DNA of 41,415 nt from Thermoproteota archaeon (lineage in GTDB: Archaea > Asgardarchaeota > Jordiarchaeia > Jordiarchaeales > Freyrarchaeaceae): NCBI GenBank assembly GCA_029258835.1, contig JAPDJY010000022.1, forward strand, positions 1 to 41,415, written 5' to 3'. The position numbers and the translations under genes are program-made. Within the stretch, counting starts at the first letter, position 1. Every line of letters begins with the position of its first letter. The notes beneath the pieces were generated by a model. The model was not told where the DNA came from and ran no database searches. It saw only the letters and a program-made list of their open reading frames with translations. Shown piece by piece: positions 15,147-39,023 of the stretch.

Positions 15147-16560
15147 GCCTTGTGTAGCTGTTGCGTTTTAGATAAGTTTATATACTTGTTTGTTTATTTT
15201 GGTGTTTGTGGTGTGTATGGATAGAAGGGAGGGAATGCTGAGGAGTGGTGGGGTCGCCGGGCTCCTAGGAGTTGGCGGGCACACCGTTGCCAGGTGGGTT
15301 AAGGGGGGTGGGGTCAGGGCGGTGAGCCCCAAGCGGAAGACACAGGACCCGGGGAGCGAGGTGAAAAACACTGGATGGGGGAGCGGCCGCGATTAAATCG
15401 TATAGGGTTCCTGTGGAGGCGCCGGGAGACCTGATGGAAGCATACCTTGAGGCGAAGAACGAAGAAGAAAGCGCTAGAAGAAATCATGAAACACGTCACC
15501 AATCAGAAAGCGGAAAGGCCACCTAAGCTTCAAAGCCGGGGATAGGAGGAGGCTGAGGAACAACCTCCTGGAGGGCTGGAAGTACTCCAGGCACTACGTT
15601 GACTCAGCGATAAACTCGGCCATAGGGCTGGTTAAGGGGTGGGTAAAGCTGTACAACAGGGGGAGGGCAAAATCCAAACCAAAAATAACAGGGAAAACGG
15701 TGTACGTGAAGGCGACACTCTTCACGTTCAGGGATGGAAAGCTAAAAATTAGCATTGAACCAAACAAGCGATACCTTGAAGTGGACCTGGCAGGGTATGG
15801 CTACCTGCCAAGGGACTTCGACTCCATCGGAGGACTACTACTAACAGAGAACGGGCTCATAATCAACTTCAAGAAGAAAGTGGAAAGCATTGAGCCGAGG
15901 GGCTGGGCCTCGTTCGACGTGAACCTAACCAACGTGACCGCCCTGATCAACGGGAGAATAGTTAGGTACGACCTCAGGCAGCTGTACCACGTCCACAGGG
16001 TCTACGAGGAGAAGAGAAGGAGAATACAAAAGCTTTCTAAACGCAAGCCCAGGACGGCTGAGAGGCTCATGCGGAAGTACTCCAGGAGGGAGAGGGACAG
16101 GGACAGGGATTTCATGCATAAGCTGACGGCCAGGATTGCCGGGGAGCTGGAGGAGCTACGTAGCGGGGCGATACTCGAAGACCTGAAAGGCGTCAAGGCC
16201 AGGGTTCTCAACGGGGGCAAAGGAATCAACCGCAGGATTTCGAAGTGGAACGCAAGAACATTCCAGCTCATGCTAGGGTACAAGCTGGGGTGGGCTGCCT
16301 GTGAAGTACGTTAACCCGTCCTATTCTTTCAAGACCTGTCCTCTCTGTTCTGGCCGCATGGCGGCCTATGAGGGCAGACTAATGCGATGCAAAGAGTGTT
16401 GTTTGGTCCTGGATAGGGATGTTGTTGCCGTCCTGAACCTTCGGATGCGGGGCGCCGGGGTTCCCCCGAAAGCCCTAATAGAGGCGTATGCCTCGATGAT
16501 GGGGAAACGCCTGACAGGCAAAAACCGTTTACCCATAAAAGCCTATCAAGCGTGAACCCC
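15147..16560 (+). mobile_element. Decayed IS607-like element (HTH-only tnpA remnant + tnpB pseudogene)
   Basis: Left end GCCTTGTGTAGCTGTT and right end ...CCCATAAAAGCCTATCAAGCGTGAACCCC resemble the ends of the two smaller copies. An HTH remnant (VAGLLGVGGHTVARWVKGG) starts at about 15235. Confidence 0.8.
15390..16555 (+). pseudogene. tnpB: TnpB pseudogene with multiple frameshifts
   Basis: Fragments in shifting frames: IKSYRVPVEAP, WKYSRHYVDSAI, RuvC-I SFDVN, RuvC-II ILEDL, zinc finger CPLC...CKEC, RuvC-III DRDVVAVLNL. Confidence 0.85.
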
Positions 16561-16719
16561 GCCCTTTGGGGTGCTAGGGGGTGACGGCTTAAGGAGCTGG
16601 ATTGGAGGCTCGGCGGCGAAGGGAGGTAGGACGAATTTTTAGTATTTTTCCCGAAAGATCCGTGGAACATTAATTGTTATAGGTGGACTGCAGCCTCCCT
16701 CCAGTAGGGAGGGAGTCCC

Positions 16720-17211
16720 ATGGGTATAATCGAGCTCTTTAAGAGGAAAGGTAGAGGGCATGGCAGCCTTCAGGAGGCTGGCCCGCATGGCGGAGTTTGC
16801 TCGGGGATAGAGCCTGAAACGTTTAACCTTTGCATGCCTGAGGAGGTTTACATTAAGTCCATCCCATTGATAATGCTTTCCGACGTCCAAAGGGCGGCAG
16901 GGGAGCTTAGGGCGGGTAACATAGTGATACTTCACATCAAGCCCATGCTTCAAAGGGACAGGACGAGGAACGAGCTTAAAAGGGCCGTCGACCAGCTTAG
17001 GGGGATATGCCGCCAGCTTGACGGGGACATAGCACAGCTCGGGAGGGAGTACATAATAGTGACGCCTGGCCCGTTCATAAAGATATATAAGCCTGAGCCT
17101 AAGCCTCCCAGCGAGGAGAAGGAGGGAGAAGAGGAAAGGAAGGCTGATGGCCACCACGCTCAGGCACCACCCCATCCCCGCCCTCACGTTCAAACCGCCA
17201 TGGTCAGATAG
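16720..17211 (+). CDS. sepF: Cell division protein SepF
   Basis: Amphipathic N-terminus MGIIELFKRK; core ELRAGNIVILHI...LKRAVDQL...LDGDIAQLG..YIIVTP. Confidence 0.85.
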   Translation: MGIIELFKRKGRGHGSLQEAGPHGGVCSGIEPETFNLCMPEEVYIKSIPLIMLSDVQRAAGELRAGNIVILHIKPMLQRDRTRNELKRAVDQLRGICRQLDGDIAQLGREYIIVTPGPFIKIYKPEPKPPSEEKEGEEERKADGHHAQAPPHPRPHVQTAMVR

Positions 17212-17263
17212 GTTGACGAGTTAACAGGCAGGGTGATGCTTTCTGGTTTCGTCTGCCCGCTTT

Positions 17264-17281
17264 CTACTCAAAAACGGGTAG
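17264..17281. promoter_or_regulatory. 18-bp imperfect palindrome upstream of the rib operon promoter (candidate RbkR operator)
   Basis: CTACTC-AAAAAC-GGGTAG directly precedes the BRE/TATA-like CAACAAATATATTT. Confidence 0.5.
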
Positions 17282-17293
17282 CAACAAATATAT

Positions 17294-18040
17294 TTGAGAT
17301 CTTCTTATTGTGAGGAACGGTGTCCACGCATGCGGCGGGCAGAGGTTAGAAGGGTTGCTAGGAGCCTCCTGAAGGGAGACTTTGTGCTGGTATACGACGA
17401 GGACGGGAGAGAGGAAGAAGTCGACATGGTGATGCTGGCTGAGAAGGCTACCCCAAGACATGTTTACAGGCTTAGAAGGGATGCCGGAGGACTCATCTGC
17501 GTAGCCCTCCACCCTAAAATATGGGAGAGGTGGGGTCTCCCCTTCCTCCACGACGTCTTCAGCTTTTCAAGCATGAAGTATGGTGTGCTGTCAAGCCTGG
17601 CGCCAAACGACATACCCTACGATTCCAGGTCTGCCTTCTCGATCACCGTCAACCATAGGAAGACGTACACTGGAATCACGGATGCTGATAGGGCTTTAAC
17701 CATAGGCGAGGTAGGGAGAATGGGGAGGGAGACCATCGAGGATCCCGGCTTAGACTGGCGGAGGAGGGTTGGGGAGGCGTTCAGGTCTCCTGGACACGTC
17801 CACCTCCTCCTTGCTGCAAGGGAGCTGCTCCATGAGAGGCACGGGCACACCGAGCTCACGGTGTCGCTTGCAGAGGTGACGGGGGTTCCACCGGTGATGG
17901 TGCTCTGCGAGATGCTCGACGGCGAAACGGGGGGAGCCCTCTCGGTAAGGGACGCTAAAAGGTATGCTGAGAGGTACGGGTTCAACTTCCTGCGGGGCGA
18001 GGACATAGTTGAGCTGTGGGAGAGGAGCCATGAAGGTTAA
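17294..18040 (+). CDS. ribB: 3,4-dihydroxy-2-butanone-4-phosphate synthase; start probably ATG 17330
   Basis: YDEDGREEEVD, DAGGLIC, TYTGITDADRALT, FRSPGHV, RHGHTE, CEMLD. Confidence 0.95.
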   Translation: MRSSYCEERCPRMRRAEVRRVARSLLKGDFVLVYDEDGREEEVDMVMLAEKATPRHVYRLRRDAGGLICVALHPKIWERWGLPFLHDVFSFSSMKYGVLSSLAPNDIPYDSRSAFSITVNHRKTYTGITDADRALTIGEVGRMGRETIEDPGLDWRRRVGEAFRSPGHVHLLLAARELLHERHGHTELTVSLAEVTGVPPVMVLCEMLDGETGGALSVRDAKRYAERYGFNFLRGEDIVELWERSHEG

Positions 18041-18500
18041 GATAGGCATAGCGGACACGACGTTTGCAAGGTACGACATGGCTAGGGTTGCAGTGGAGGA
18101 GATCGAGAGCATGACGAGCAAGGTGGAGATAGTGAGGTACACGGTTCCAGGGGTGAAGGACCTGCCGGTTGCCGCCAAGAAGCTCATAGAGGAGGAGGGG
18201 TGCGAGGTGGTTATAGCGTTCGGCATGCCTGGCCCTGAACCCATAGACAAGCTGTGCGCCCACGAGGCTTCGATGGGGATAATCCAAGCCCAGCTGATGA
18301 CCAACAAGCACATAATAGAGTGCTTCGTGCACGAGGACGAGGGGGGGAGCGTTGAGGAGCTCATCTCGATATGTGAGGACAGGGCGAGGAAGCACGCTAG
18401 GAACGCTGTGAGGCTCATATTTGACAGGGAGTGGCTTACCAGGCATGCCGGGCAGGGTCTCAGGCAGGGGCACCCGGACGCAGGACCCCTAAAGCCTTAA
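18009..18500 (+). CDS. ribC: Archaeal riboflavin synthase; start probably ATG 18030
   Basis: KIGIADTTFARYDM, RYTVPGVKDLPVA, HIIECFVHEDE, AGQGLRQG. Confidence 0.95.
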   Translation: MSCGRGAMKVKIGIADTTFARYDMARVAVEEIESMTSKVEIVRYTVPGVKDLPVAAKKLIEEEGCEVVIAFGMPGPEPIDKLCAHEASMGIIQAQLMTNKHIIECFVHEDEGGSVEELISICEDRARKHARNAVRLIFDREWLTRHAGQGLRQGHPDAGPLKP

Positions 18501-18530
18501 AAGGCTGAGGGTGGGAAGGTAGGCTGAAGG

Positions 18531-18971
18531 GTGGTGAAGGTGGCTGGTGAGGGCGTGAACCTTGGCATAGTAGTTTCCGAGTTCAACTACGATATAACGT
18601 ACCTCATGCTGCAGAGGGCGGTGGACCACGCCGAGTTTCTGGGCGCGAAGGTTGTTAAGGTGGTGAAGGTTCCCGGGGCGTTCGACATGCCTCTCGCCGT
18701 TAAGAAGCTTCTCGAGAGAGGCGACGTCGACGCCGTCGTCACCATAGGGGCGATCGTAAAGGGCGACACCGACCACGACCAGGTGGTTGCACAGCACGCG
18801 GCGCGTAAAATGGTTGACCTAGCGCTGGAGTATGGTAAGCCCGTGACCTTGGGGGTTTCAGGTCCAGGTATGACTAGGATGGAGGCCATGGAGAGGATTG
18901 AGGAGTTCGCCAGGAGGGCGGTTGAGGCGGCTGTTAAGATGGTTAAGAGGATGAGGGAGGTTTCAACCTAA
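18531..18971 (+). CDS. ribH: 6,7-dimethyl-8-ribityllumazine synthase
   Basis: [43 protein letters not shown]. Confidence 0.96.
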
Positions 18972-18985
18972 GGGAGCTGAACGCC

Positions 18986-19765
18986 TTGATAAAGATGACG
19001 CTTGTTCAGCTTGACAATTACGGTCCCTGGACGGAGTTCCTTGGGGATGACAGGGAGGCTGACCTGCAGGTTTTACAGTCCGAGCTCTACGCCGACCTGC
19101 AGAGGATGTTCTCCTCGAAGGGTGGACTTCTCTTCTTCTCCAGGTTTGACAACATGCTCGCTGTATCGAACGGGGTGACGGTGGAGGATCACAGGGCCAT
19201 CCTGAAAAGCATCGCTAGGAGGTACCCTGTGACCGTCAGCATGGGGATCGGGGTTGGGGAGACACCCTACGAGGCGCAGCGCATGGCTACGAGGATGCTT
19301 CAGAGGAGCGGGAGCGCCCAGTCGCCTGAAAGGAGAAGCGTACTGGCCCATAACCTTGACGGGCCTGTCAGGGGGGGATACGTCCAGATAGCCCACATAG
19401 ACGTTAACAGCTTCACGGAGCAGGTGACCGACAGGGAGGACGCCTACAAGGCAATGTACCTGGTCTCAAACCTGTCCACCGTCCTGATGAAGCTGTCGAT
19501 GAGTAAGGGCGTATTAACGTTCTTCAACGGCGGGGATAACTTCATATCTGTTTGCAATGGTTTGAGCGAGGACGACTTTAGGGAGATCCTTTACAGGCTT
19601 GAGGTGAGCACCGGGCTGAAGCTTAAGGCAGGCGTAGGGTTCGGGAGGAACGCTGTTGAAGCCCTAACAGAAGCCAACAAGGCTCTTTCGATGATAAGGA
19701 GGGGTAAAACGGGGGAGCCCGTGGTTTTCCTGGGAGGGCCACCACGTGAAGACTATCTACTGTGA
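18986..19765 (+). CDS. gch3: GTP cyclohydrolase III (ArfA)
   Basis: QLDNYGPWT..LG.DRE..LQ.LQ, RFDNM, AHIDVN, GGDNF. Confidence 0.93.
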   Translation: MIKMTLVQLDNYGPWTEFLGDDREADLQVLQSELYADLQRMFSSKGGLLFFSRFDNMLAVSNGVTVEDHRAILKSIARRYPVTVSMGIGVGETPYEAQRMATRMLQRSGSAQSPERRSVLAHNLDGPVRGGYVQIAHIDVNSFTEQVTDREDAYKAMYLVSNLSTVLMKLSMSKGVLTFFNGGDNFISVCNGLSEDDFREILYRLEVSTGLKLKAGVGFGRNAVEALTEANKALSMIRRGKTGEPVVFLGGPPREDYLL

Positions 19766-20882
19766 GTACGCCCTCCTAGGCAGAGAGTTAAGGTTTGAGG
19801 AGAGGGTTTACGTCACGATCTCGAGCAGCGGATTCATAAAGAGGGTTTCACCCTCCCCGCCTAGGAGGGTGGATGAGGAGTATGATTCATGCCTCCTCAC
19901 CCCGGGGTTCATCAACGCTCACACGCACGTAGGAGACTCCTTCTTTAAGGAGGTCGGGTTTAACGTTCCCGTGGAGGAGCTGGTTGCGCCTCCAGACGGG
20001 CTTAAACACAGGCTTTTAAGGAATGCAGGGGAGGACGACGTTAAGGAGGGGATTAGGTGCGCGGCGGAGGAGATGCTGTCCTCCGGAACCACGGCCTTCG
20101 CGGACTTCAGGGAGGGAGGCGTCAGGGGGGCGCTGATCCTTAGGAGGGCGCTTGAGGGCACGCCTATACGCTACATAATACTGGGAAGGAATGATGGGTT
20201 GGAGGAGCTGCTCCGCGTGTGCGATGGCGTAGGGCTCCCCTCAACCAACCTTTACAGCGACGAGGAGTTGAGGAGGATCTCTGAGGCATGCAGGTTGAAC
20301 GGGCTTCTAGTGGCGGCTCACGCCTCCGAAACAGTGAGGGAGAGGGAGCTGGCCGTCAAGATGTATGGTGTGTCGGATGCTGTGAGGGCTGTTAAGGTGC
20401 TTAACGCCGACCTCCTAGTCCACTTAACGCACGTTGACGAGGAGGAGCTACCCCTCTTATCGGGGAGGGGGGTTGCATGCTGCCCGAGGGCTAACGCGTA
20501 CCTTGGCGTCGGGCTCCCCCCCGTCGAGAAGATGGTTAGGGCGGGAGTCAGGGTTTGCCTTGGAACGGACAACGTGATGGTGAACAGCCCCGACCTCCTA
20601 AGAGAAATGGACTTTCTGGGGAAGATGGTTAGGGCTAGGTCCGGCCCAGCATGCCTCGAGGCCAGGGAGATAGTTAAGATGGTGACGGTTAACCCGGCTG
20701 AGGTTTTGAGGCTGAACTCGGGGTGGATTGAGGGGGGGAGGTACGCCGACCTTGCGGTCATAGACCTTGACGCCGCCAACGTTAAGCCGGTTCACCACCC
20801 TTACCAGGCGCTTGTCCACAGGGTTAAGTCCGAGAACGTGCTGTGCGTCTACGTTGGGGGTGTTAAAGCCTATGAAAGGTAA
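19746..20882 (+). CDS. Metal-dependent amidohydrolase (deaminase-like) within the riboflavin operon
   Basis: PGFINAHTH, GTTAFADFREGG, HASE, VHLTH, CPRAN, LGTDN; it overlaps both neighbours. Confidence 0.85.
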   Translation: MKTIYCEYALLGRELRFEERVYVTISSSGFIKRVSPSPPRRVDEEYDSCLLTPGFINAHTHVGDSFFKEVGFNVPVEELVAPPDGLKHRLLRNAGEDDVKEGIRCAAEEMLSSGTTAFADFREGGVRGALILRRALEGTPIRYIILGRNDGLEELLRVCDGVGLPSTNLYSDEELRRISEACRLNGLLVAAHASETVRERELAVKMYGVSDAVRAVKVLNADLLVHLTHVDEEELPLLSGRGVACCPRANAYLGVGLPPVEKMVRAGVRVCLGTDNVMVNSPDLLREMDFLGKMVRARSGPACLEAREIVKMVTVNPAEVLRLNSGWIEGGRYADLAVIDLDAANVKPVHHPYQALVHRVKSENVLCVYVGGVKAYER

Positions 20883-21534
20883 ACCCTACGTTATACTTAA
20901 CGCCGCCATGAGCCTTGATGGCAAAATAGCGACTGTAGGGGGGGACTCGGAGTTCTCGGACGAGGAGGACTGGAGGAGAGTGCACAGGCTCAGGGCCGAG
21001 GTCGACGCGATAATGGTTGGGGTTAACACCGTGCTAGCCGACGACCCTAAGCTGACTTCCAAGGTAGGGAGGAGCCCTTTAAGGGTTGTCGTCGACAGCA
21101 TGGCCAGGACCCCTCCCACGGCGAGGGTTCTCACCTACAGGAGGGATGTGCCAACCGTGATAGCCGTGACGGGTAGGGCTCCAGCTGAAAGGGTTGAGAA
21201 GCTGAGGGAGGCAGGGGCGAGGATCCTATTGTGCGGCGAGGGGAGGAGGGTGGACTTGGAGGTTCTCATGGAGAAGCTCTTCGAGATGGGGGTTAGAAGG
21301 CTCCTCCTTGAAGGGGGAGGAAACCTTAACTGGGGCATGTTCGAGAAGGGGCTAGTGGACGAGGTGAGGGTTGCCGTGGCCCCGGTGATAGTTGGCGGAA
21401 GCAGGGCGGTGACGCTCGTTGAGGGGGAGGGGTTCGGCAGGGTGAGCCGGGCGGTGAAGCTTAAAATTCTAAACGCTGAGAGGGTGGGGGGATGCTTGCT
21501 AATAACGTGCAAGGTGGAGAAAAAAGGGATTTAA
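20872..21534 (+). CDS. arfC: 2,5-diamino-6-ribosylamino-4(3H)-pyrimidinone 5'-phosphate reductase
   Basis: MKGKPYVILNAAMSLDGKIA, VHRLRA..DAIMVG..TV..DDP, LLEGGG; there is no deaminase domain. Confidence 0.92.
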   Translation: MKGKPYVILNAAMSLDGKIATVGGDSEFSDEEDWRRVHRLRAEVDAIMVGVNTVLADDPKLTSKVGRSPLRVVVDSMARTPPTARVLTYRRDVPTVIAVTGRAPAERVEKLREAGARILLCGEGRRVDLEVLMEKLFEMGVRRLLLEGGGNLNWGMFEKGLVDEVRVAVAPVIVGGSRAVTLVEGEGFGRVSRAVKLKILNAERVGGCLLITCKVEKKGI

Positions 21535-21563
21535 AAAAGGGGGAAGGAAGGAGAACGTGTGGC

Positions 21564-22025
21564 TTAGAGTAGGCGTTCTATATCCTGTTTTAGCTCCTTG
21601 AAGGCCTCGTTTTCCGGGTCGAGCGCTATGGCCTTATCTATCGTTTCCACTGCCTTCCTTTTCTCGCCTTTATCGGCGTAGCAGGCGCTTAGAACGTAGT
21701 AGAAGACTGGTATGTCGGGACGTATGGAGATCGCTTTCTCCAGGCTGTCTATTGCCTCGTCGTACCTTTTCAGCCTCATGTACGAGAAGCCCATGTAGTA
21801 GTATGCGTCCTCCGGGCCTGGAACTCCGAGCTCAATCGACTTCTTCATGGACGATGCGGCAGCCTCAAAGTTGTGCATTCTAAACTGAACCACTCCGTCA
21901 TAATACCAGACGAGAGGGTGGTTAGGCGCCATTCCCTTAGCGGACTTTAGGTCCAGTTCAGCTAGGTCAAGGCGTCCCTCTCTTATGTTTCTCACGGCAC
22001 TCTTCAAAACGTTTTCCAGCGACAT
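21564..22025 (-). CDS. Tetratricopeptide-repeat protein
   Basis: Repeated TPR consensus (AYYYMG..Y...KRYDEAI..LEKAI...P). Confidence 0.85.
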   Translation of the reverse strand: MSLENVLKSAVRNIREGRLDLAELDLKSAKGMAPNHPLVWYYDGVVQFRMHNFEAAASSMKKSIELGVPGPEDAYYYMGFSYMRLKRYDEAIDSLEKAISIRPDIPVFYYVLSACYADKGEKRKAVETIDKAIALDPENEAFKELKQDIERLL

Positions 22026-22200
22026 TAAACCAACACTTGGAATGTTGCTAGGTTGCGATAAAAAGGAGGAACCTTTCCATCACACCCGCAACTCAACATA
22101 ACCGAAAAGCAGTATAAATAAATTTCTAAGAAAGGCGGGAGGCGACCTAAAACCTAGACGGTGAAGGCGACATTCTAATTAGAACACATTTCTACTGTAA

Positions 22201-22528
22201 GCCTTGCGAAACTGTTAAATGTTTGGTGGACATGTATGGGCGTTTTGATAGATGTGTCCCAGATGCGGTGGGAGGATGGAGCACCGAAAGGGACAGGTTC
22301 TGGAGTGTAAATAGACAGTTGAACGCTTCAGTAAACCTATACCTAAGGATGAGAGGCTTCCCTCCTTCAATGAGGGTTTGGGAGGAAATTGTTCCCCAGA
22401 CCCGAGGAGGGGTGGGCCCCCTCGATAGGGGCGAGACCGATGACACGCCCCCAATGAATCCAGAGGGAGACGAGGCTGACGCCCCTAAAGCGGACACGCA
22501 CCTATAAAGACCACGTCCGCTGAACCCC
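22201..22528 (+). mobile_element. Non-autonomous IS607-like derivative (left end + tnpB 3' remnant/right end)
   Basis: Left end GCCTTGCGAAACTGTT, TnpB RuvC-III remnant VNRQLNASVNLYLRM, right end CCTATAAAGACCACGTCCGCTGAACCCC. Confidence 0.7.
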
Positions 22529-22533
22529 GCATG

Positions 22534-22953: not shown

Positions 22954-23095
22954 GCTTTTTCCACCAGTCTCTATTTTTTTAAATTTATATGCGTTTCGGA
23001 GTGATGGTTCCCCTTAAAATGCCTTCCTTCTTTTGCTTGAATCGTTTCTTTCGGAGGCGAAAAGCTTCTAACGTAACGTTACCTATTTCTTACGG

Positions 23096-24361: not shown

Positions 24362-24576
24362 AAGCGGCTTAGAGCAGCTACCCACCCTACTTTTTCATGG
24401 GGATGAGGGAGGGTTGAAGCGTTAAACACCCCATTCCCATCGACCCCTAGGATTCGACTCGACGTTTACGCCTCTGACACGCAAACCCCCGTAGCAACAA
24501 ACTACATGGAAGGATGTTCTGCAACTCTCCGGTAACGTCGCGCCCAGCGTTGAAGCCCCTTTCCACTTTTAGCTTA

Positions 24577-28875: not shown

Positions 28876-28950
28876 TGGGCGGATGGGAGGGCGGGAGGGG
28901 CGGTGGAACACAACATTATTTAAAGCTCTTCCTTTCCTTTAGTTAGTGGA

Positions 28951-30966: not shown

Positions 30967-30974
30967 GTGGAAGG

Positions 30975-31826
30975 ATGGGGAGGCTGGCTGAGGAGATAGT
31001 CAGGAAGCCGCAGCTTGCATCTAAGCTCGACGGCGAAGCAGTCAAGAGGATCATCTACGATGCGGGGGAGGTTCTCGAGGGTGAAACCTACTTTGAGGTT
31101 GAGGGTGGGAGGGTCCTCTTCGTAGGTGACACGCACGGTGACCTCTACTCAACCATGGCTGTGGCAAGGAGGTTTCTCAGGGAGGGCTACGACCTGGCGG
31201 TTTTCCTAGGGGACTACGTTGACAGGGGGGCTGAGCAGGTTGGAAACATGAACTTCGTCCTCTCGCTTAAAACCGTGTACCCTGACAGGGTGATACTTCT
31301 CAGAGGCAACCACGAGACCCCCCTCGCCAACAGGTACTACGGATTCATGGATGCTGTCTCGAGGAGGTTCTCCTTCAGCTTCTACAGGGTTTACGCCTCC
31401 CTCTTCGCATCCCTGCCATACGCTTGCCTAGTTAACGGGTCGGTGCTGTGCCTTCACGGGGGGATAGCTAAGGGGCTTGAAAGGCTGAGCCAGCTCAGGG
31501 AGATTCCCAGGGAGGTGGAGGTCGAGGACCCCATAGGGTTCCAAGTGCTGTGGAACGACCCTCATGAGGGGGTGAGGGGGTTCAAGCCAAGCCCCAGAGG
31601 GCCGGGAATATACGTGTTTGGAGAGGACGTTTTCACGGAGTTCGCCGAGGAGAATGGGGTTGAGGTTATGGTGAGAGCTCACGAGGTGTTCCCTCAGGGG
31701 TTCAAGTGGTACTTTCGAGGGAGAATTTTGAGCTTGTTTTCCGCCGCGCAGTACACCATCCCGGTTAATGCCAAGGTGGGCGAGATGGAGGGAGGAGATC
31801 TCCGGGTAGTGGACGTCTTCAGCTGA
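30975..31826 (+). CDS. PPP-family serine/threonine protein phosphatase
   Basis: GDTHG, GDYVDRG, LRGNHE, LHGG, LWNDP, RAHE, LFSA. Confidence 0.93.
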   Translation: MGRLAEEIVRKPQLASKLDGEAVKRIIYDAGEVLEGETYFEVEGGRVLFVGDTHGDLYSTMAVARRFLREGYDLAVFLGDYVDRGAEQVGNMNFVLSLKTVYPDRVILLRGNHETPLANRYYGFMDAVSRRFSFSFYRVYASLFASLPYACLVNGSVLCLHGGIAKGLERLSQLREIPREVEVEDPIGFQVLWNDPHEGVRGFKPSPRGPGIYVFGEDVFTEFAEENGVEVMVRAHEVFPQGFKWYFRGRILSLFSAAQYTIPVNAKVGEMEGGDLRVVDVFS

Positions 31827-31925
31827 GAGGGCAGCGTGGATGGTTAACTTGCCTCCTAGTGTGGTTGACGTTTGAGGCGGCTGCTAAGCCGTTAAGTGTG
31901 CTGCGGATCGCTGAGGGTTCCGAGT

Positions 31926-32666
31926 TTACGTTAGGAGGGCTGAGTTGAGGAATTCCTGCAGGTCTTTAGGTTTTATCGTTCCCGTGTGGAGGGCTGTCGC
32001 AACCAGCGCGCCCTTCACTCCTATGCTTCGCAGAGCCTTTAAGTCTTCGACGCTTCTCACCCCTCCGCCGGCTATCACCGGGATTGAGAGGTGGGACGCA
32101 AGCTTCTCGAGGAGGGTGATGGGGGGGCCGCTGCGCATTCCGACACGGGATAGGTCCACCACGAGGAGGGAGGACACGCCGGAATCCTCGAACATCGCCG
32201 CTGCTTCAAGAGGGGTCATTGACGCTACCTCCCGGCTCCTAGAGACGACGGAGACGCCTCTCAGGTCGAGGCTTCCAACTATTCTTTCGCCGTAAAGCCT
32301 AGTGCACTCTGAGAGGAAGGCTGGGGTTGGGATGGTCTCGGTTGCAACGACGACGCCTGATACTCCGGCTCTGACCAGGCTCTCGACGGACTCGACGCTT
32401 CTCACCCCGGCGTCGGCCGTGATCCTCATGGAGGAGCGTCTAACGAGAGACCTTATGGCTCCCAGGTTCGGCGCCCTCCCCTCTATAGCGTCCAGGTCTG
32501 CGATGTAGAGTTCGGTGAAGCCGAGGCATTTAAACGCGTACATGACGTTCATGGGGTCTGGCGAGGAGGTGAGAACCGACTTGACGGGCTCATACTCTCT
32601 TCTAACGCCTCCCTTAGCGTGCACGACGATGCCGTTCATCAGGTCCATGACAGGTATTACACGCAT
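31926..32666 (-). CDS. HisA/HisF-related TIM-barrel protein of C1-cofactor gene clusters
   Basis: MRVIPVMDL..G.VVHA..G.R..Y.PV, LYIADLDAI, AGGGVR; it neighbours mfnD and mfnF. Confidence 0.8.
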   Translation of the reverse strand: MRVIPVMDLMNGIVVHAKGGVRREYEPVKSVLTSSPDPMNVMYAFKCLGFTELYIADLDAIEGRAPNLGAIRSLVRRSSMRITADAGVRSVESVESLVRAGVSGVVVATETIPTPAFLSECTRLYGERIVGSLDLRGVSVVSRSREVASMTPLEAAAMFEDSGVSSLLVVDLSRVGMRSGPPITLLEKLASHLSIPVIAGGGVRSVEDLKALRSIGVKGALVATALHTGTIKPKDLQEFLNSALLT

Positions 32667-32908
32667 ACCCCTTGCTCCCCTTCATGGTGCAGGCGAAAAG
32701 GAGAAGCTTAAAAAGAATAGTGTAGCTACAAATAAAAAACTTTCCAACCTCTAATTGATCGTCCATCCCCTTCAGGGTGGAAGTGGCGGGAAAGGGGCTC
32801 AGCCCTGAGGCATCGTGTAGAGGCTGCGGGCAGCAGGTGGTTGGGGTAGGGTGCAACGGGTGGATTCTTGGGTTGGCGCGGGAGGCTGCCTTCCTGGCTG
32901 GTGGTGGG

Positions 32909-34045
32909 ATGAAGGGAAGGGTCTTCGTGTACGAGTTTATGTGTGGAGGCGGGATGGCTGGTGAGGAGTTGCACGTGGACGTTGCAGTGGAGGGGCTCGC
33001 CATGCTTCTCGCATCCGCCGAGGACTTCTCCTCCGCAGGGTTCCACACGTTCACGACTCTAGACCCCAGACTTCTCTATTTGAAGAGGATTTTTGAAGCT
33101 AGGAGTGTCGCCGTGGTGGAGAGGGGCCTCCTTGAAGGGGTGGAGGAGGCTGACTGGGTTCTTTTAATTGCCCCGGAGACGGGGGGGACGCTCTGCGAGT
33201 TAACGCGAACCCTTGAAAGGAGCGGATGCAGTGTTTTGGGCTCCTCCTCCAATGGGGTAGCCTTGGCTACGGATAAGGGGAGAACATTGGAGTTGGCTGG
33301 TGAGGCAGGGCTAAGCGTTCCCCTGACCTTAACCGCCAAGAGCGTGGAGGAGGCTGTTGGGAGGGCGTGGGAGGTCGGGTTTCCAGCCGTGTTTAAGCCG
33401 GTTGACGGTGTGGGATGTGAGGGGGTCAGCGTAGCTAGGGGCGAGGATGATGTTAGGGGGGCGGCTGAGCTCGCCTCGGCTGCTTCAGGAACCGGGGAGA
33501 TCCTCGTTCAGGAGTATGTGAAAGGGGTGGATGCGAGTGCAAGCTTGATAGTTGGCGATGACGAGGCAACGCCCTTAACGCTAAACGCTCAAATGATTCT
33601 AATCGGCGAGGACGGAAGGATACGTTATGAGGGGGGCTACCTCCCCCTCAAGCACAGCTTGGAGAAGGAAGCCTTAAAGGCAGCTGAGAAGGCGGCGCTG
33701 CAGATTCCGGGCTTGAAGGGGTACGTTGGGGTGGACTTGGTCCTGTCTCGCAGGGGGGTGTTCATAATGGAGGTTAACCCCCGCCTGACAACCTCGTACC
33801 TAGGTGTCAGGGAAGTTGTAGAAGGTAACATTGCAGGGTTTATCTTCGACTCGTGTCTGAGAGGGGTGACACCGGGAAGAGTGGTGGTTAGGGGAGGCGC
33901 AGCGTTCAGGAAAACGTCTACGCGTGAAGTGTGTGATTGGGAGGTTTCAATAAATGAGAGGCACAGGTTTATAGTTTGCCGCGGAGGAAGCATAGATGAA
34001 GCGCTGGTGAAGGCGGGAATCCGCCCTCGGAGGGCTAACCTCTAG
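32909..34045 (+). CDS. mfnD: ATP-grasp ligase, MfnD (tyramine--L-glutamate ligase)-like
   Basis: VFVYEF..GG, EG.AML, LIAPE, KPVDGVGCEG, LTLNAQ, GYVGVD, EVNPRLTTSY. The ORF-track start at 32777 is probably too far upstream. Confidence 0.75.
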   Translation: MKGRVFVYEFMCGGGMAGEELHVDVAVEGLAMLLASAEDFSSAGFHTFTTLDPRLLYLKRIFEARSVAVVERGLLEGVEEADWVLLIAPETGGTLCELTRTLERSGCSVLGSSSNGVALATDKGRTLELAGEAGLSVPLTLTAKSVEEAVGRAWEVGFPAVFKPVDGVGCEGVSVARGEDDVRGAAELASAASGTGEILVQEYVKGVDASASLIVGDDEATPLTLNAQMILIGEDGRIRYEGGYLPLKHSLEKEALKAAEKAALQIPGLKGYVGVDLVLSRRGVFIMEVNPRLTTSYLGVREVVEGNIAGFIFDSCLRGVTPGRVVVRGGAAFRKTSTREVCDWEVSINERHRFIVCRGGSIDEALVKAGIRPRRANL

Positions 34046-34451
34046 TATGGTTTCCATGGGCAATTTCAGAGAAGGGTCTAAGCGTGCAACATCGGCGTGT
34101 AGGGTGGGGGTACCTAGTCGTTCGCTCTCGTGTTTGCCTTCCTTAGTTCTGGAACACGTTGAATAGGGGTGTTCCCGTAGGGGTCGACAAGGTAATCGCC
34201 AGCTTTCTTTTCCGATAGGGCCGGTAGATCAAGCTGTCCATTTCCGTTTGCGGTTGTTAGGTCCCGCCTCACAGTTGCAGGCAATATTGATGGTATTCCC
34301 GCATATCATATAGGTTAGCCTTCTGATTGATTGCTGTCTTCATTGTTACGATTCGTTAAAGATAGAATCTTATAGGGAGAGACCTTATAGGATCTGAATG
34401 TGATGGATCCCGCTCTATGGTTGGAAGTGGGGCCTTCTGGGTGAAAGAGAA

Positions 34452-35522
34452 ATGATTTTTGTTGGATTGGACGTGGGGGGCGCTAATACTAAGGCTGCTA
34501 GGGTGGATGTTGGATCTGGGAGAGTTAGGGTTAAAGTGGTTAGGGAGTACTTTCCCGTGTGGGCTAGGTCGAGGGGTGAGCTTCCAGAGCTCATATCTAG
34601 GATAGGGCGGGGGCTTTGTGGCGGGGAGGAACCTGACTGCGTCTGTTTGACGATGACCGCCGAGCTCTCCGACGCTTACGAGACCAAAAGGGAGGGGGTT
34701 AACCATGTTCTTTCTTCGGTTGAGTACGCTTTTAAAGGGGTTGAGGTGCTTGTCGTGAACTGCATGGCGGAGCTTTTAAGCGTCGGCGAGGCGAGGAGGC
34801 GCCCCTTGGAGGTTGCAGCGGCGAACTGGCCGGCTACGGGGTGGATGGTTGGAAGGGTCTTCAGAAACTGCATCTTCATGGATGTGGGGAGCACAACCAC
34901 CGACATAATACCCGTTAGGGATGGGGTGCCCTGCCCTGAGGGGAGAAGCGACACCGAGAGGCTGATGAGCGGAGAGCTAGTCTTCACGGGGGTTCTCAGG
35001 ACGAACATTTCGGCTATAGTGGGGTGGGTCCCCCTGTGGGGGCGCATGTGTAGGGTGTCTCCGGAGAAGTTTGCGTTAACCGCCGACGTACACCTCATCC
35101 TGGGGAACATTTCGGAGGAGGATTACACCTGCGAGAGCGCTGATGGGAGGGGGAAGGACGTGGAGCACTCGATGGCTCGCTTGGCGAGGGTTGTGTGCGG
35201 CGACCTTGAAACCCTAACCGCCGAGGACGTCCTCGGGATCGCGAGGTACGTGTATGTTAGGCAGGTGGAGCAGGTGGTGGAGGGGCTTGAGCAGGTTTCC
35301 TCCAGAAACCCGGACTTAAAGACGGTTGTAGTTGCTGGTCTGGGAGGGAGGTTCCTAGCTTGGAGGGCGGCAGAGGCTGCAGGCTTCAGGAAAATACACG
35401 GTTTAGACGATGTGTTTGGGAGGATGGTTTCCGAGAATGCACCCGCCGTTGCTGCGGCTCTGATGGCTGCTGGAAGGAGGGGGGTGGACGTGGACGAAGT
35501 GCTTAGGAGGATGAGGGGGTAG
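34452..35522 (+). CDS. mfnF: MfnF (hydantoinase A-like, methanofuran biosynthesis)
   Basis: GLDVGGANTK, TMTAELSDAY..KREGV, AAANW, DVGSTTTDIIP, GELVFTGVLRT, RLARVVCGD. Confidence 0.85.
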   Translation: MIFVGLDVGGANTKAARVDVGSGRVRVKVVREYFPVWARSRGELPELISRIGRGLCGGEEPDCVCLTMTAELSDAYETKREGVNHVLSSVEYAFKGVEVLVVNCMAELLSVGEARRRPLEVAAANWPATGWMVGRVFRNCIFMDVGSTTTDIIPVRDGVPCPEGRSDTERLMSGELVFTGVLRTNISAIVGWVPLWGRMCRVSPEKFALTADVHLILGNISEEDYTCESADGRGKDVEHSMARLARVVCGDLETLTAEDVLGIARYVYVRQVEQVVEGLEQVSSRNPDLKTVVVAGLGGRFLAWRAAEAAGFRKIHGLDDVFGRMVSENAPAVAAALMAAGRRGVDVDEVLRRMRG

Positions 35523-35644
35523 CATGGTTCGCCGGGCTTTTTCTTTGTGTTTAGCAATGAAATGTTTTACTTAAGTAAAAATTCGCGTCCATCACATTTA
35601 ATTATAGAAAAAAATAAATACCAGAAAATTGATAGAAGTTCCTC

Positions 35645-35742
35645 AGGTTTAGGAGGAATCTCGGTGAGAGGGGGTAGGCCAACCCCTGAAGGGGAACACT
35701 GATCCAATGAAGGGCCTGTAACCCCCCGAGCCTCAAACCTCC
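35645..35742 (+). ncRNA. Candidate small structured non-coding RNA
   Basis: A TATA-like GAAAAAAATAAATA lies about 25 nt upstream. Nested helices: AGGTTT/AAACCT, GAGG/CCTC, CTCG/CGAG, GGGGGT/ACCCCC, AGGCC/GGCCT, CCCC-TGAA-GGGG. Confidence 0.45.
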
Positions 35743-35744
35743 TT

Positions 35745-36227
35745 TCAGAAAAGTGTTGTCTGCCTGTATCCCTTCTTCCCCTCCTCCTCGACGGCTTCCC
35801 TGGGCTTCCTTGAGCGCTTAGCCTTCCGCCCAGCCTGCATTTTGGCGGCTGCCTCGCGGGCTGCTTCGCGGGCTGCTTCACGCTCCCTCTGGGCGAGAGC
35901 CCTTATTCTTTCGCGGTCCACTTCAACGGTGAAGTCGAGGGGGTATGGTTCGACCTCGTCTAGGCCGCTGAAGTCGAACTTCTTTCCGAGGAAGATGAGG
36001 GGTGGGGTGTCAACGTCCCTTGCCATGGAGAGGAGGCCGCCGTCCATCCTCAGTACGCCGTTGTCCAGGGCTAGCTTGAGAAGTTTAAGGGCTCTTGTAG
36101 GGGAGAAGTTGAAGGGGAGCCCCCAGTCGAACGAGAGGATGAAGCACCATTCTTTAGGGGTAAGCTTGGATTTGCCTGAGAGAATGAATGGTATCTTTGA
36201 TAGGGCCTCCACGGCGTCTAGGCTCAT
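35745..36227 (-). CDS. DUF2240-like archaeal protein
   Basis: PF...GKSKLTPKEWCFILSFDWG....SP..A..L...A...G.L pattern. Confidence 0.65.
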   Translation of the reverse strand: MSLDAVEALSKIPFILSGKSKLTPKEWCFILSFDWGLPFNFSPTRALKLLKLALDNGVLRMDGGLLSMARDVDTPPLIFLGKKFDFSGLDEVEPYPLDFTVEVDRERIRALAQREREAAREAAREAAAKMQAGRKAKRSRKPREAVEEEGKKGYRQTTLF

Positions 36228-37210
36228 GCTTGACCACCGTTGCCTCTCTGTTCTTTCTCCTTGGGTGGAGCGGGGGGAGCCCCCTCGGCTCTTCTGACGG
36301 GGGGTTGGGGGAGTATCAGCATCGACGCGTCGATCTCCTCGATTATAGGCTTAGTTTCCGGTCTTAGGGTGGCTTTCACGGGTATTACGAGGAGTTCCGC
36401 GTGCGTCTTCCTCATTCCGGCGACGGCGGTCACGTCTATTGTTCCGGCCTCTATGAAGTGGGCTACCTTGAAGCCTCGCTCCACCAGAGCTGGCTCAACC
36501 TCCTTGAAGGACTTCTCCATTATGTTGCATGCCGACGACAACACCTTCTCCTTTTCAAGGGTTGTCAGCTCCGACAGGGCGTCGCTGACCATTTCGACCG
36601 ACTTCAGGAACGACTCGTCTATGTAGGTGAGGAAAGTTATCTTAGCGTTGGGTCTGCACATGGTTATGAGGGTTGGGAGGCATGCCTTTATCTCCCCCGG
36701 CTCCCTGACGAGGACCAGCACGCGGCTGAGAAGCCTTTGAGGCGTAACCTCGGACTTCTTAATGACGAGGATCGGAAAGCCTACCTTTTGAACCAGGAGT
36801 TCAACCAGCTTCACCATGGAGGCGGCGGCCTCAACCGTTTCTGAGGGGGAGGGGACGACCAGGAGGCTGGGCTGGCCGCCCCTCGTTAACTCCACTATGA
36901 GGTTTACCAGGCTGTCTTCTGGAACGTGCTCCTCCACGTCGTGAACCCCTCTCCTTTCCAGTTCCTTCCTGACGGATTTGAAGGTATCCCTGCAGTTCTG
37001 CTTCATGCACACCAGCTTAACACTGCACGAGCACTTCTTGGAGAGGAACGCCGCGGCCCCCACCGTCGGCTCAAGGGGGATCGAGGTGTCTGGCAGCAGC
37101 AGGAGTATGGAGGCGAACGGTGACGGTTCAACCCCCCTCACCGGTATTATTAGGTGTTGCTTAAGTCTGCTTTCAAGCCGGGCAATCTTCTCTAAATCCT
37201 CCTTGCTCAA
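36224..37210 (-). CDS. Universal-stress-protein (USP)-like tandem-domain protein
   Basis: Two alpha/beta repeats (FASILLLL...SLLVVP...LVQKVGFPILVIK; RVLVLV...AELLVIP...SMLILP). Its stop overlaps the next ATG. Confidence 0.55.
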   Translation of the reverse strand: MSKEDLEKIARLESRLKQHLIIPVRGVEPSPFASILLLLPDTSIPLEPTVGAAAFLSKKCSCSVKLVCMKQNCRDTFKSVRKELERRGVHDVEEHVPEDSLVNLIVELTRGGQPSLLVVPSPSETVEAAASMVKLVELLVQKVGFPILVIKKSEVTPQRLLSRVLVLVREPGEIKACLPTLITMCRPNAKITFLTYIDESFLKSVEMVSDALSELTTLEKEKVLSSACNIMEKSFKEVEPALVERGFKVAHFIEAGTIDVTAVAGMRKTHAELLVIPVKATLRPETKPIIEEIDASMLILPQPPVRRAEGAPPAPPKEKEQRGNGGQA

Positions 37211-37556
37211 TTGGAACCCTCCCGTGGGAGAACGAAGCTAACCTAACCTTCAGCACCCTCCTTTTAGAATAAAAGCTGACGAGTATAAGTAGAAGGCGAA
37301 GAGGGGTGAAGACGCAACCCGGGGCGGGATTCGGAGGGGACGCGTGAACCGCTCAGGGTGAAACTACACGTCTTGGGAGAGGCTGCCGGAAACTTCACCC
37401 CGTAAACCCCGTCAGGACTTAAGTTACCATTTATGCTCCCAGAACATTTAAACATTCACTCATCCCTCTTCTAAAAGACAATTACCTTCGGATTTAAAAA
37501 TATTGGTAAGTTCCTCTACTTTCTCAGAGGCAGCACATAAAAAGTTTTTGCCCCTA

Positions 37557-37586
37557 TTTATAAAGGGAATCTTTATAAAGGGAATC
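37557..37586 (+). repeat. 15-bp perfect tandem repeat containing a TATA-like core
   Basis: TTTATAAAGGGAATC occurs twice. Confidence 0.9.
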
Positions 37587-37687
37587 GGGGGTGCGGAGGG
37601 GTTGAAGGAGAAGACGCTTGATGGTTTGAGGGGTGCTCCGCCGCGCCGCCCCTCCAGGAACGAATGGAGGGTTTCCACCGTTAAGGC

Positions 37688-39023
37688 TTAGTAGTAGTCG
37701 GGGTATAGCTTCGGGGAGGGGTTGACCGTGCTCTGAGGCTGGAAGCTTCCCTTCAAGGTGGTCTTTAACCGTTTTGAAGTCGTTAAGGTGAGGTCGTTAA
37801 GGCCTGACCCGGTGAGGATGCACACCACCCTTCCATCGAAGAGCTCCCAGTTGCTTCTGATGGCTGCTATGGGGGTTCACGGTTGGTAGGCTTTTATGGG
37901 TAGTGTGGGCTGGTCTGTCAGGCGTTTCCCCGTCATCGAGGCATGCGCCTCTGATGGGGCTTTCGGGGTGGCCCCGGAGCCCCACGTCCGAACGTTCCGT
38001 CCTCATAGGCCACCCTGTGGCCAGACAGCACTTACAAACACTTACCAAATATTTTAACTGTTTCGCAAGGCGTCCACTATCTCCCTGTCCGAGACCGTTA
38101 GTATTCTCCCTCCGCTCTCCCTCGCAGCCTTCACTGCAAGGGGGGCATCGTAGGGGCGTTCAACCCTTATAGCGCTTGCAATAGTGCTTGGCTTGCTCCA
38201 CCTCGCCATTAAGCCTTCCTTCCACGCCCTAGCTACCGGGCTGCACCCCTCCGCCTAGACGCCGACGACCCTTGGGATACGGTCGAGTAGTTTAAGCTTT
38301 CTTTAACTCCAGAATCCCTTGTAGATAGCCGACATGAGCACTCCCGACCCGGCAGGGCAGACGACCCAGCCTATTGATGACGGCTACCCCCCAGAGCTTG
38401 AAGCCAATCGTTTTCTGCCCCTTCCTCCTCCAGTAGTATTCGCCGACGAACATTACGTCCTCGTCCTTTGGGAGGGAGGGGGCGATGTTCACCGCTCGTC
38501 AAAGCCCCCGTCAACGAACTCTATTTCCGCCCCGTAGAGCTTCACCATTGTAACCTTTCCAACGGGGGATTCACGGGGCATAACTATCCTGCACTTAACC
38601 CCCGCCTTGGCCGAGTAGGCTGCGACGCTTGAAGCCATGTTACCCGTTGAGGCGCAGACAACGCTTGAGGCGCCCATCTCCAGCGCCTTGGTCGGCTCCA
38701 CGGCGCTCCCCCTATCCTTGAGCGACCCCGTCGGGTTGTGGGTTTCCAGCTTAAACCACAGGTCTAGGGCGTACTCCCCCTATGACCTCGCTCCTCCGAG
38801 TCGGAGTCCACCCCTCGTTGAGGCTGATGAGCCTTGGAGGGTGTTCGACGGGTAGCAGCTCCCTGTACCTCCATACTGTTCTGCCGTGGAAGTCTTCCCG
38901 GCTGAGCTTAAGCTGGTCGTAGTCGTGGTAGACTTGGATTGGGCCTCCACGGTCGGGGCAGAGGATGGGGAGTTCCTCGATCCTCGCGCCGCACAATCCG
39001 CATTCCAGGTACACTTCAACCAC
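37688..39023 (-). pseudogene. thrC: Threonine synthase pseudogene
   Basis: Fragments WRYRELLP..SLNEGWTP, NPTGSLKDRG, CASTGNMASS..AYSA, GQKTIGF, GV*AEGCSP, TIASAIRV, VVCILTGSGL. It has several frameshifts, stops and an inserted element. Confidence 0.9.
37872..38071 (-). mobile_element. About 200-bp miniature IS607-like element inserted in thrC
   Basis: Left end GCCTTGCGAAACAGTT. The last 120 nt or so align colinearly with 16441-16560, ending GTGAACCCC. Confidence 0.85.

Follow-up and report, generated by a model that had tools for sequence, protein, structure and literature searches.

The Three Elements

The window analyzed here is a 41,415-nt stretch of the genome of an uncultured Asgard archaeon (Jordarchaeia) that occurs in hydrothermal sediments (assembly GCA_029258835.1, contig JAPDJY010000022.1). 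Three insertions in it have a left end, GCCTTGYG.., and a right end, ..GAACCCC, in common: A (15147-16560), B (22201-22528), and C (38071-37872, minus strand). A first-pass annotation had placed three loci with common ends at these positions. It had also described hairpins with identical stems and differing loops (CGGGG-ttc-CCCCG versus CGGGG-cca-CCCCG; GAGGC-gtat-GCCTC versus GAGGC-gcat-GCCTC) and an AT-rich box after every left end. All of these are present in the sequence, the boxes at 15177-15184 (A), 22215-22224 (B), and 38048-38056 (C). The features are as follows.

15147-16560, plus strand: element A, 1414 bp, a decayed, non-autonomous IS607-type element (HTH ORF and tnpB) with 82% full-length identity to an intact copy at C9:45666-47085
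15147-15162, plus strand: left-end terminal motif of A, GCCTTGTGTAGCTGTT (G, CC core, and a motif resembling a TnpA site), common to A, B, and C
15177-15184, plus strand: TATA-like box TTTATATA 5' of the HTH ORF in A, a putative promoter read from the sequence
15190-15396, plus strand: remnant of a small MerR/HTH_17-type ORF (the N-terminal domain only of IS607 TnpA), identified from its intact counterpart on C9
15401-16555, plus strand: frameshifted tnpB pseudogene (ORF pieces 15700-16314 and 16301-16555)
16352-16366, plus strand: hairpin H0 of A (GGCCGC-atg-GCGGCC), within the zinc-finger coding region, with stem variants in relatives
16430-16560, plus strand: predicted omegaRNA-type scaffold of A, helices S1-S4, terminating at the right end GAACC-CC (143.9 bits with covariance model R1)
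22201-22528, plus strand: element B, 328 bp, a protein-less derivative of a sister IS607 family; its positions 55-328 have 75% identity to the 3' end of a tnpB at C56:926-1224
22215-22224, plus strand: AT-rich, TATA-like box in the left end of B, positioned like that of the complete IS607 copies of C56 and L128
37872-38071, minus strand: element C, a 200-bp protein-less mini-transposon, one of 23 copies (blastn and alignment)
38048-38056, minus strand: TATA-like box in the left end of C, nearly invariant in 22 aligned copies
38008-38022, minus strand: hairpin H0 of C (GGCCAC-agg-GTGGCC), compensated relative to A by sequence comparison
37872-38002, minus strand: predicted omegaRNA-type scaffold of C (R1, 139.1 bits)

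The resemblance of A, B, and C is far beyond chance. A repeat finder aligns A with C over 126 nt (16435-16560 and 37872-37997, 82%) and over 30 nt (16349-16378 and 37996-38025, 83%), and it aligns the shared left ends of B and C over 27 nt (22193-22219 and 38053-38079, 85%). The motif GCCTTGTGTAGCTGTT is common to A, B, C, and approximately 48 left ends across the genome. Where the first-pass annotation counted three copies, blastn of the assembly reveals dozens. The 200-bp C-type unit is present in 23 full copies with pairwise identities of 82-97% (median 89%), the 1.4-kb A-type unit, consisting of the HTH ORF and tnpB, in seven copies or fragments, exactly one of them intact (on contig C9), and several further mini-families accompany them. 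The assembly is a 91-contig metagenome-assembled genome (MAG) of 95% completeness with an estimated contamination of 6%, properties that could lend weight to the idea that the similarities reflect chance or misassembly. Against that idea, R1 yields 30 strong matches spread over 25 contigs, independent metagenome contigs match the same copies and their flanks at 97-100% identity, and several sequencing runs contain them too. Chance and artefact are thereby refuted, and we assign them a negligible probability.

The HTH ORF and tnpB of A are broken into pieces of 68, 204, and 84 aa, and a Cas12f1-like_TNB motif lies at 16286-16441. In the intact C9 copy, the small ORF encodes 73 aa that match HTH_17 (9e-16), with no resolvase domain. 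The adjoining TnpB is an uninterrupted 394-aa protein with OrfB_IS605 and TNB domains that matches ISDra2 TnpB structures and appears to retain the RuvC-like D/E/D motifs. The cognate intact TnpB on which the earlier reading depended is thus present. The C9 TnpB domains, together with the covarying scaffold at the 3' end, constitute the accessory tnpB with an overlapping omegaRNA found in IS607 elements. The IS607 serine-recombinase TnpA is absent from A, which has the HTH ORF only, and from B and C, neither of which has any part of it. A, B, and C consequently belong to the IS607-type (serine-recombinase) transposon superfamily as non-autonomous derivatives rather than as full members.

The three sizes had been taken for one shrinking lineage, and that interpretation does not hold. 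B resembles A and C only in its first ~29 nt and last ~25 nt, and its interior derives from another tnpB; relatives of B are shorter (265-270 bp) and reside on C6, C9, and C33. C, by sequence, is a chimera whose left end is that of an autonomous IS607 family and whose right end is of the A type. B and C each retain ~45 nt of left end, the TATA-like box included, and the terminal 150-270 nt of a tnpB element, which is the omegaRNA scaffold ending exactly at the right end. B (328 bp) and C (200 bp in 23 copies) are small, non-coding, and multicopy and carry the ends of longer parents, as MITE- and PATE-like elements do; ORFs within the mini-elements are frame remnants only. Both blastn and R1 agree with the first-pass description of non-autonomous IS607-type derivatives that retain the left end and the omegaRNA region. 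The elements possess neither terminal inverted repeats nor a target-site duplication. C itself lies within a thrC-like pseudogene in which, compared with intact homologues, 18 aa are missing exactly at the insertion point.

An intact autonomous IS607 element is found outside the assembly, in metagenome contigs. This element (L128) spans 1983 bp, begins with an identical left end of 27 nt, and encodes a serine TnpA of 204 aa and a TnpB of 447 aa; a second locus, L136, combines that left end with a TnpA. Among all PF00239 matches and all left-end matches of the MAG itself, no TnpA is both intact and bounded by matching ends. No copy is present in the four other genomes of the GTDB family, and in species-representative genomes a 19-nt left-end pattern returns only chance bacterial matches and one archaeal MAG contig. 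At the level of exact words, the C family is absent from the representatives of other species.

An omegaRNA-Type Scaffold

By sequence, the 3' part that the mini-elements keep is an omegaRNA-type scaffold. R1, whose structure was drawn by hand from distant relatives, recovers the 3' end in every TnpB relative tested and scores 139-168 bits on the mini-copies. The first-pass annotation had proposed building such a model and asking whether substitutions respect the stems. Across TnpB relatives from many archaeal phyla, compensatory changes on both sides occur in 24 of 26 base pairs; in the relatives' alignment, paired cells amount to 91.6%, versus 63.5% when shuffled and 32-53% when slid, although pair counts in the A3 alignment are inflated by its having been fitted to the model. 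A K-turn-like GAUGA motif sits next to helix S3. Helix S2 switches from CCCC/GGGG to GGGAC/GUCCC among relatives, and the H0 stem takes nine different forms in relatives, complementary every time.

The single-sequence folding energy of C is ordinary (z = -0.8) and hence uninformative, and an Rfam scan of the window returns no family at gathering score. Helix S2 faces a competing pairing between the first G run and the GCCCC run, and RNAalifold, applied to a 29-sequence alignment, gives a poor consensus dominated by such G-run/C-run alternatives. An excess of structure-preserving C>T changes over G>A changes was set aside, since unpaired columns show the same asymmetry and it says nothing on structure.

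Is the scaffold used? A competing explanation is that these are plain mini-transposons whose long right end is kept by TnpA sites or by chance breakpoints, with the omegaRNA region an untranscribed or unused relic. Comparison of the mini-copies shows clearly raised conservation in the first 16 nt only, and helix S4 in the window copy of C has lost two of its nine pairs. Because of these two observations, individual copies may be decaying relics. Moreover, the S4 loop contains motifs rich in GT/CA that resemble the left end in inverse orientation and could be TnpA sites, and one derivative of 59 bp (L139) has no scaffold, showing that the scaffold is unnecessary for element persistence. Against this explanation, the whole scaffold, from the H0/zinc-finger region through the right end, is kept in each of at least five independent mini-families, and double-change cells within the genome exceed shuffled expectation (9 observed versus 3.0). 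The left-end box points the same way. It occupies a fixed position in all families; in full copies, the tnpA ATG follows ~25-35 nt later (~25-30 nt in those of C56 and L128), and in the C family the box is joined directly 5' of H0, with transcription of C predicted to start ~25 nt 3' of the box, just 5' of H0. Finally, according to PMC10691335, stand-alone omegaRNAs act in trans in other systems. On balance, we find the relic explanation unlikely, albeit the most serious competitor. On the whole, B and C are probably IS607-type mini-elements that are moved in trans and whose scaffold serves as a TnpB guide RNA.

Movement at a CC Core

Three sites that are empty in the genome (on C55, C67, and C17) are occupied in the metagenome. 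Empty sites read GAY-GCC|flank, and occupied sites read GAY-GCC-TTGCG..GTGAACC-CC-flank. A metagenome contig carries an adjacent deletion of 793 nt, running from a right end to a CATGCC site. CC is present at both junctions, with a single GCC at the three empty sites and at the adjacent deletion. In addition, a DNA contig of run X1 lacks 195 nt of the C sequence, with an ambiguity of 2 nt (CC), a joint that fits a CC core; in metagenome contigs, the predicted empty site of C, sought as an exact 28-mer, has no match. The flank logo has Y at -1, then G, then CC. Relatives from other phyla likewise start with GCC and finish with GAACCC, and the same genome holds a GG-core IS607 element that ends ..CAGAAC-GG. 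In total, presence/absence polymorphism exists between closely related strains at four sites, in addition to one adjacent deletion. We conclude that recombination takes place at the CC of both ends and that insertion follows a GAY-GCC motif. A CC crossover and a target ending in GCC had been proposed from the window, and the comparison with empty sites bears both out.

Predicted Guides and Their Targets

The mechanism that we favor would operate as follows. A serine TnpA provided in trans would mobilize the mini-elements. The left-end promoter would drive a transcript of the scaffold that continues into the flank, and the TnpB of the intact A-type copy would load that guide RNA. TnpB could then cleave the empty site (GAY-GCC plus flank), and repair would restore the element. 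Cutting of the empty site followed by restoring repair matches the published role of TnpB in homing and retention.

RNA data come from one small metatranscriptome kept as contigs, which cannot reveal RNA ends. RNA-library contigs, which may be DNA-derived, cover B at 22278-22511, and others, with the same caveat, extend 24 nt and 211 nt beyond the right ends of other copies; such contigs are at most weak hints of transcription. Stretches lacking RNA-contig cover in run X19 and low-share runs are left out as evidence.

For each 20-nt flank guide, the sole full match adjacent to a predicted TAM is its own flank, as the published homing/retention model predicts. No off-site target with a GCC-type motif exists; matches elsewhere are partial and have no such motif, and one match of 18 of 20 nt on C8 is unrelated sequence. 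These results count against the suggestion, made in the first-pass annotation, of a dispersed guide repertoire directed at host loci. In such a repertoire, cassettes would program TnpB, or an inactivated relative, for regulation or defense. The ratio of 23 cassettes to one intact nuclease gene would suit it, and TnpB-derived RNA-guided regulators have been reported (10.1101/2023.11.30.569447). However, the guides are whatever adjoins each insertion, and the RuvC-like motifs of the intact TnpB would speak for a nuclease rather than an inactivated relative. We consider a host-directed repertoire very improbable.

Does the homing reading extend to a drive guided by RNA and active in an Asgard population in the wild, with one TnpB, more than 20 protein-less cassettes, and empty alleles that bear its marks? 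Between empty and occupied alleles, 8 of 81 positions differ in the predicted TAM and first 20 nt, versus 20 of 632 elsewhere (Fisher p = 0.009, three pairs). At two independent sites, the empty allele has GAT-GCC and the occupied allele GAC-GCC, and at one site the difference falls on positions 1-2 of the target. In copy C, the empty allele has a 2-nt CC footprint, which shifts the predicted TAM. We regard such a drive as doubtful. If it were true, these alleles would be population-genomic evidence that TnpB cleavage selects resistant sites in nature.

Relation to Known Elements

Unlike classical MITEs, which end in terminal inverted repeats and are flanked by target-site duplications, the elements described here have neither feature. 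The Sulfolobus SM-type elements are archaeal MITEs that reportedly arose from IS elements (Redder and colleagues, 2001). Like those, the present elements are small, multicopy, protein-less derivatives of resident archaeal IS elements.

Stand-alone mobilized omegaRNAs of OMEGA systems have been described (Altae-Tran et al. 2021), with action in trans, as the summary in PMC10691335 has it. Ours are similar in that the scaffold lies at the right end, there is no nuclease or transposase gene, and effector loci exist in the same genome. They are unlike them in their IS607 type, CC core, Asgard host, and TATA box fused to the scaffold; here, the cassettes are known from sequence. PATE-like minimal IS200/IS605 elements with omegaRNAs exist in Geobacillus stearothermophilus (Meers et al. 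2023; PMC10055086), where they are mobilized in trans and their omegaRNAs require TnpB encoded elsewhere. The Asgard mini-elements are likewise protein-less and have both ends as in tnpB elements. The Geobacillus elements, however, move as single strands with a Y1 HUH transposase and end hairpins, whereas no such partner occurs at ends matching ours, and our junctions fit a dinucleotide crossover by a serine recombinase.

A characterized relative is the IS607-family CboIStron, which has TnpA(S), TnpB, and an omegaRNA (Zedaveinyte et al.; 10.1101/2023.11.20.567912). Both have the core dinucleotide at each end, a transposase target motif that ends in it, and a right end with two adjacent core dinucleotides that makes the boundary ambiguous. 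In CboIStron, the target motif doubles as the TnpB TAM (TGGG), and we infer the same dual role for GAY-GCC. Short ends suffice for excision in that system: the Clostridium IStron is excised with 40 bp from its left end and 60 bp from its right (10.1101/2023.11.20.567912). Characterized IS607 elements have a GG core (10.1101/2023.11.20.567912). The present elements differ in that the core is CC, there is no group I intron, the host is archaeal, the A type has only the TnpA HTH domain, and the TAM is deduced.

Stand-alone mobilized omegaRNAs and omegaRNA-bearing PATEs are already published, and the principle is known. The present elements carry the known range of stand-alone omegaRNA cassettes into the IS607 (serine-recombinase) branch and into Asgard archaea. 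They also supply a defined system with a CC core and a GAY-GCC target that lends itself directly to tests in vitro, with C9 TnpB as candidate nuclease, L128 TnpA as candidate transposase, and 23 natural guide cassettes. Finally, the analysis accounts for a class of "orphan structured RNAs" and for several interrupted genes that recur in this genome.

Three loci of one window and their copies across the genome

The first-pass annotation, which read three loci of the window as one IS607-like family shrinking to guide-RNA cassettes, was largely right about their architecture and CC/GCC chemistry. On reading the sequence, the loci stand where it placed them:

15147-16560, + strand: element A, 1414 bp
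22201-22528, + strand: element B, 328 bp
38071-37872, - strand: element C, 200 bp

Independently, a repeat finder recovers three matches: 16435-16560 with 37872-37997 (126 nt, 82%), 16349-16378 with 37996-38025 (30 nt), and the left end common to B and C. The sequence also contains both quoted hairpins, whose stems are identical and whose loops differ, and an AT-rich box behind the left end at each locus. The window is contig C20 of a metagenome-assembled genome (MAG) of 2.72 Mb in 91 contigs (numbered C handles denote its contigs, L handles comparison sequences), whose organism is present in hydrothermal-vent and sediment metagenomes. The genome-wide count that the annotation had proposed, run with blastn, gives 23 copies of the 200-bp unit (pairwise identity 82-97%, median 89%), 7 copies or fragments of the 1.4-kb unit, and a separate set of B relatives.

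Copy C interrupts a threonine-synthase-like pseudogene (37780-39023, - strand) with in-frame stops and frameshifts. Compared with an intact 473-aa paralogue on contig C3 and sister-genus orthologues of 467-479 aa, the pseudogene lacks 18 aa exactly at the insertion point.

A CC core and a GCC-ending target

Aligned with their flanks, the copies start G-CC-TTGCG and end GTGAACC-CC; a pyrimidine precedes the G at the left junction, and the flanks beyond are unconserved. The 27-nt left end, searched against metagenome contigs, yielded 27 of them; many represent insertions that this genome also has (flank identity 97-100%). Three carry a copy at sites that are empty here:

C55:~9802, empty; L116, occupied
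C67:~6612, empty; L134, occupied
C17:~43540, empty; L117, occupied

In all three pairs, the right flank of the empty site directly follows GAY-GCC, and the occupied site reads GAY-GCC-TTGCG...GTGAACC-CC-flank. In a fourth case, a metagenome strain is without the 793 nt that separate the C12 copy's right end from a CATGCC site:

C12:5582-6374, deleted in L131 and L120: removes part of a prolidase-like gene

It looks like a transposase-mediated adjacent deletion, the product expected from intramolecular recombination between the right end and a nearby target. For window copy C, one contig from DNA run X1 joins 37873 to 38069, omitting 195 nt at a junction that is ambiguous over 2 nt (CC) and retaining two extra C relative to the other junctions. 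This single contig, with a 27-nt side, would fit excision through the inner of the right end's two adjacent CC pairs. TnpB relatives in other phyla likewise start GCC and end GAACCC. Together, the three pairs (the comparison with empty sites that had been proposed), the 793-nt deletion, the X1 joint, and the relatives' ends support the suggested CC core and GCC-ending target, and the strain polymorphisms show recent activity of the elements.

Another IS607 in the assembly ends in ..CAGAAC-GG, and TGG-GG precedes its start. The CC/GCC arrangement parallels the TGGG/GG arrangement measured for a Clostridium IStron, in which the transposase target is the TnpB TAM (10.1101/2023.11.20.567912). By analogy, the TAM of the present system would follow from its GCC-ending target.

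TnpB, an HTH-only protein, and a plausible transposase source

Of the A copies, only the one at C9:45666-47085 is intact; its products are a 73-aa HTH_17/MerR-type protein and a 394-aa TnpB. The latter has OrfB_IS605 and Cas12f1-like TNB domains and matches solved ISDra2 TnpB structures. In window copy A, both genes are frameshifted, and a resolvase domain is absent from every A copy (7 copies or fragments). TnpB relatives at 60-74% aa identity keep the HTH-only ORF directly 5' of tnpB; the MAGs that encode them are labelled Desulfurococcaceae, Baldrarchaeota, Archaeoglobaceae, Nitrososphaeria, Brockarchaeota, Bathyarchaeia, and Jordarchaeia. Such conservation across archaeal phyla argues for a stable architecture and against a chance remnant. 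This protein, 60-75 aa long and conserved immediately 5' of the tnpB clade in several archaeal phyla, is the DNA-binding part of IS607 TnpA minus the recombinase:

L030:144-362 (contig C9): HTH-only protein
L070, L071, L078, L080, L081, L085, L090, L091: HTH-only protein

It may bind the ends, act in regulation, or recruit TnpA in trans.

Of the intact tnpB/tnpA that the first-pass annotation proposed to look for, the assembly has the cognate tnpB, on C9. No intact TnpA with matching ends occurs among the assembly's 12 resolvase-domain matches, which include an intact IS607 tnpA at window 3148-3543. An IS607 of 1983 bp on metagenome contig L128 shares the 27-nt left end exactly, encodes a 204-aa serine TnpA and a 447-aa TnpB, and has the right end ..CTGAACCCC; on another contig, L136, the same left end is followed by a TnpA. 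With these two, a transposase source in the community is plausible.

The window also holds another, apparently intact IS607, with ends unrelated to GCCTTG../..GAACCCC; contig C12 has a near-identical tnpA:

~3000-4800, + strand: different IS607, serine tnpA then tnpB
3148-3543, + strand: resolvase domain of its serine tnpA (223-aa ORF)
4540-4695, + strand: TNB motif of its tnpB

RNA scaffold and expression

Single-sequence folding gave no information on the scaffold, and RNAalifold was misled by the three runs of G and four of C; the fold was resolved through comparison with distant relatives. It comprises S1, a GGGG/CCCC hairpin; S2, a helix around hairpin S3 whose CCCC...GGGG is flipped to GGGAC...GUCCC elsewhere among the subfamilies; and S4, a terminal long-range helix that is wholly different in sequence per subfamily and stops a few nt 5' of GAACCC. 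A covariance model, likewise proposed earlier and built from this hand-compared structure, matches the 3' end of every TnpB relative tested. Both sides change in 24 of 26 pairs, and 91.6% of cells are paired, versus 63.5% when shuffled and 32-53% with partners slid, in an alignment of relatives that was fitted to the model and whose counts lean in the structure's favour. H0, a hairpin in the zinc-finger coding region of tnpB, has nine different stems, complementary in every case despite their coding location.

Within the genome, covariation is modest (9 double-change cells observed versus 3.0 expected). Five copies repair a C.A mismatch of the S4 consensus to U-A, and two repair it to C-G; window copy C has two S4 positions unpaired. 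The model finds 30 strong matches (23 mini-copies and 7 A-type copies) and 7 weaker ones in other mini-families. A GAUGA motif directly 3' of S3 (window 37930-37945, - strand, and its equivalent in all copies), which distant relatives also have next to S2, looks like a K-turn's bulged strand.

In all families, the AT-rich box occupies left-end positions ~15-24. The start codon of tnpA in full IS607 copies is ~25-35 nt 3' of it, a spacing that suggests an archaeal TATA box followed by a leader that is short or missing; applied to C, this spacing would put the predicted start just 5' of H0. The one RNA library available, a metatranscriptome (30 Mb, as contigs), speaks for presence in that library and for neither transcription nor RNA ends: one contig spans 22278-22511 of B, and others run 24 nt beyond a B-type right end and 211 nt beyond that of the C21 copy. 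Expression of the mini-elements and their use by TnpB in trans are predicted and unproven.

Origin of the mini-elements

The proposed single lineage shrinking from A through B to C does not hold. The interior of B is the 3' end of another tnpB (C56:926-1224, 75%), whose parent element is a decayed IS607 with serine tnpA and tnpB frameshifted; B is no intermediate between A and C. Element C is a chimera. It opens with ~45 nt matching the left end of the B-type, autonomous IS607, continues with the 21-nt H0 from the A-type tnpB, lacks the ~58 nt of A type beyond H0, and closes with the final ~132 nt of A type. At least four more mini-families share the left-end motif; in each, the retained stretch of a further, different tnpB runs from its zinc finger to the right end.

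Certain mini-copies and full-length A copies share compensated stem variants in the within-genome alignment, namely S3 form GGGC/GCCC and S4 form CGGCTGG/CCAACCG (copies C2c, C38, A_C22; C21b, A_C29). This sharing suggests that mini-copies arose repeatedly or that copies exchanged sequence. Metagenome contig L139 (Ga0190310_1030489) carries a 59-bp micro-derivative without the RNA scaffold, ~40 nt of left end fused to the final ~19 nt of a right end.

Guides and wider standing

The 20 nt 3' of each right end have a TAM-adjacent match at their own locus only, and a guide repertoire against other host loci, as first envisaged, is not borne out. Own-locus matches agree with the published role of TnpB, in which its cut at an empty or vacated site leads repair to restore the element (PMC10055086). 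Differences between empty and occupied alleles concentrate in the predicted TAM and the target's first 20 nt (8/81 versus 20/632 positions, Fisher p = 0.009, a post hoc, exploratory comparison of three sites). T replaces C just 5' of GCC at two independent sites, and the third differs at target positions 1-2.

Mobilised, stand-alone omegaRNAs acting in trans have been reported for OMEGA systems (PMC10691335), and for IS200/IS605, PATE-like elements "often encode omegaRNAs" and are acted on in trans (PMC10055086). Our literature search found no description of IS607-type mini-elements with an omegaRNA in Asgard archaea. The elements belong to an already known kind, here well characterised, and the clustering of empty-allele differences is the one lead that could raise their interest.
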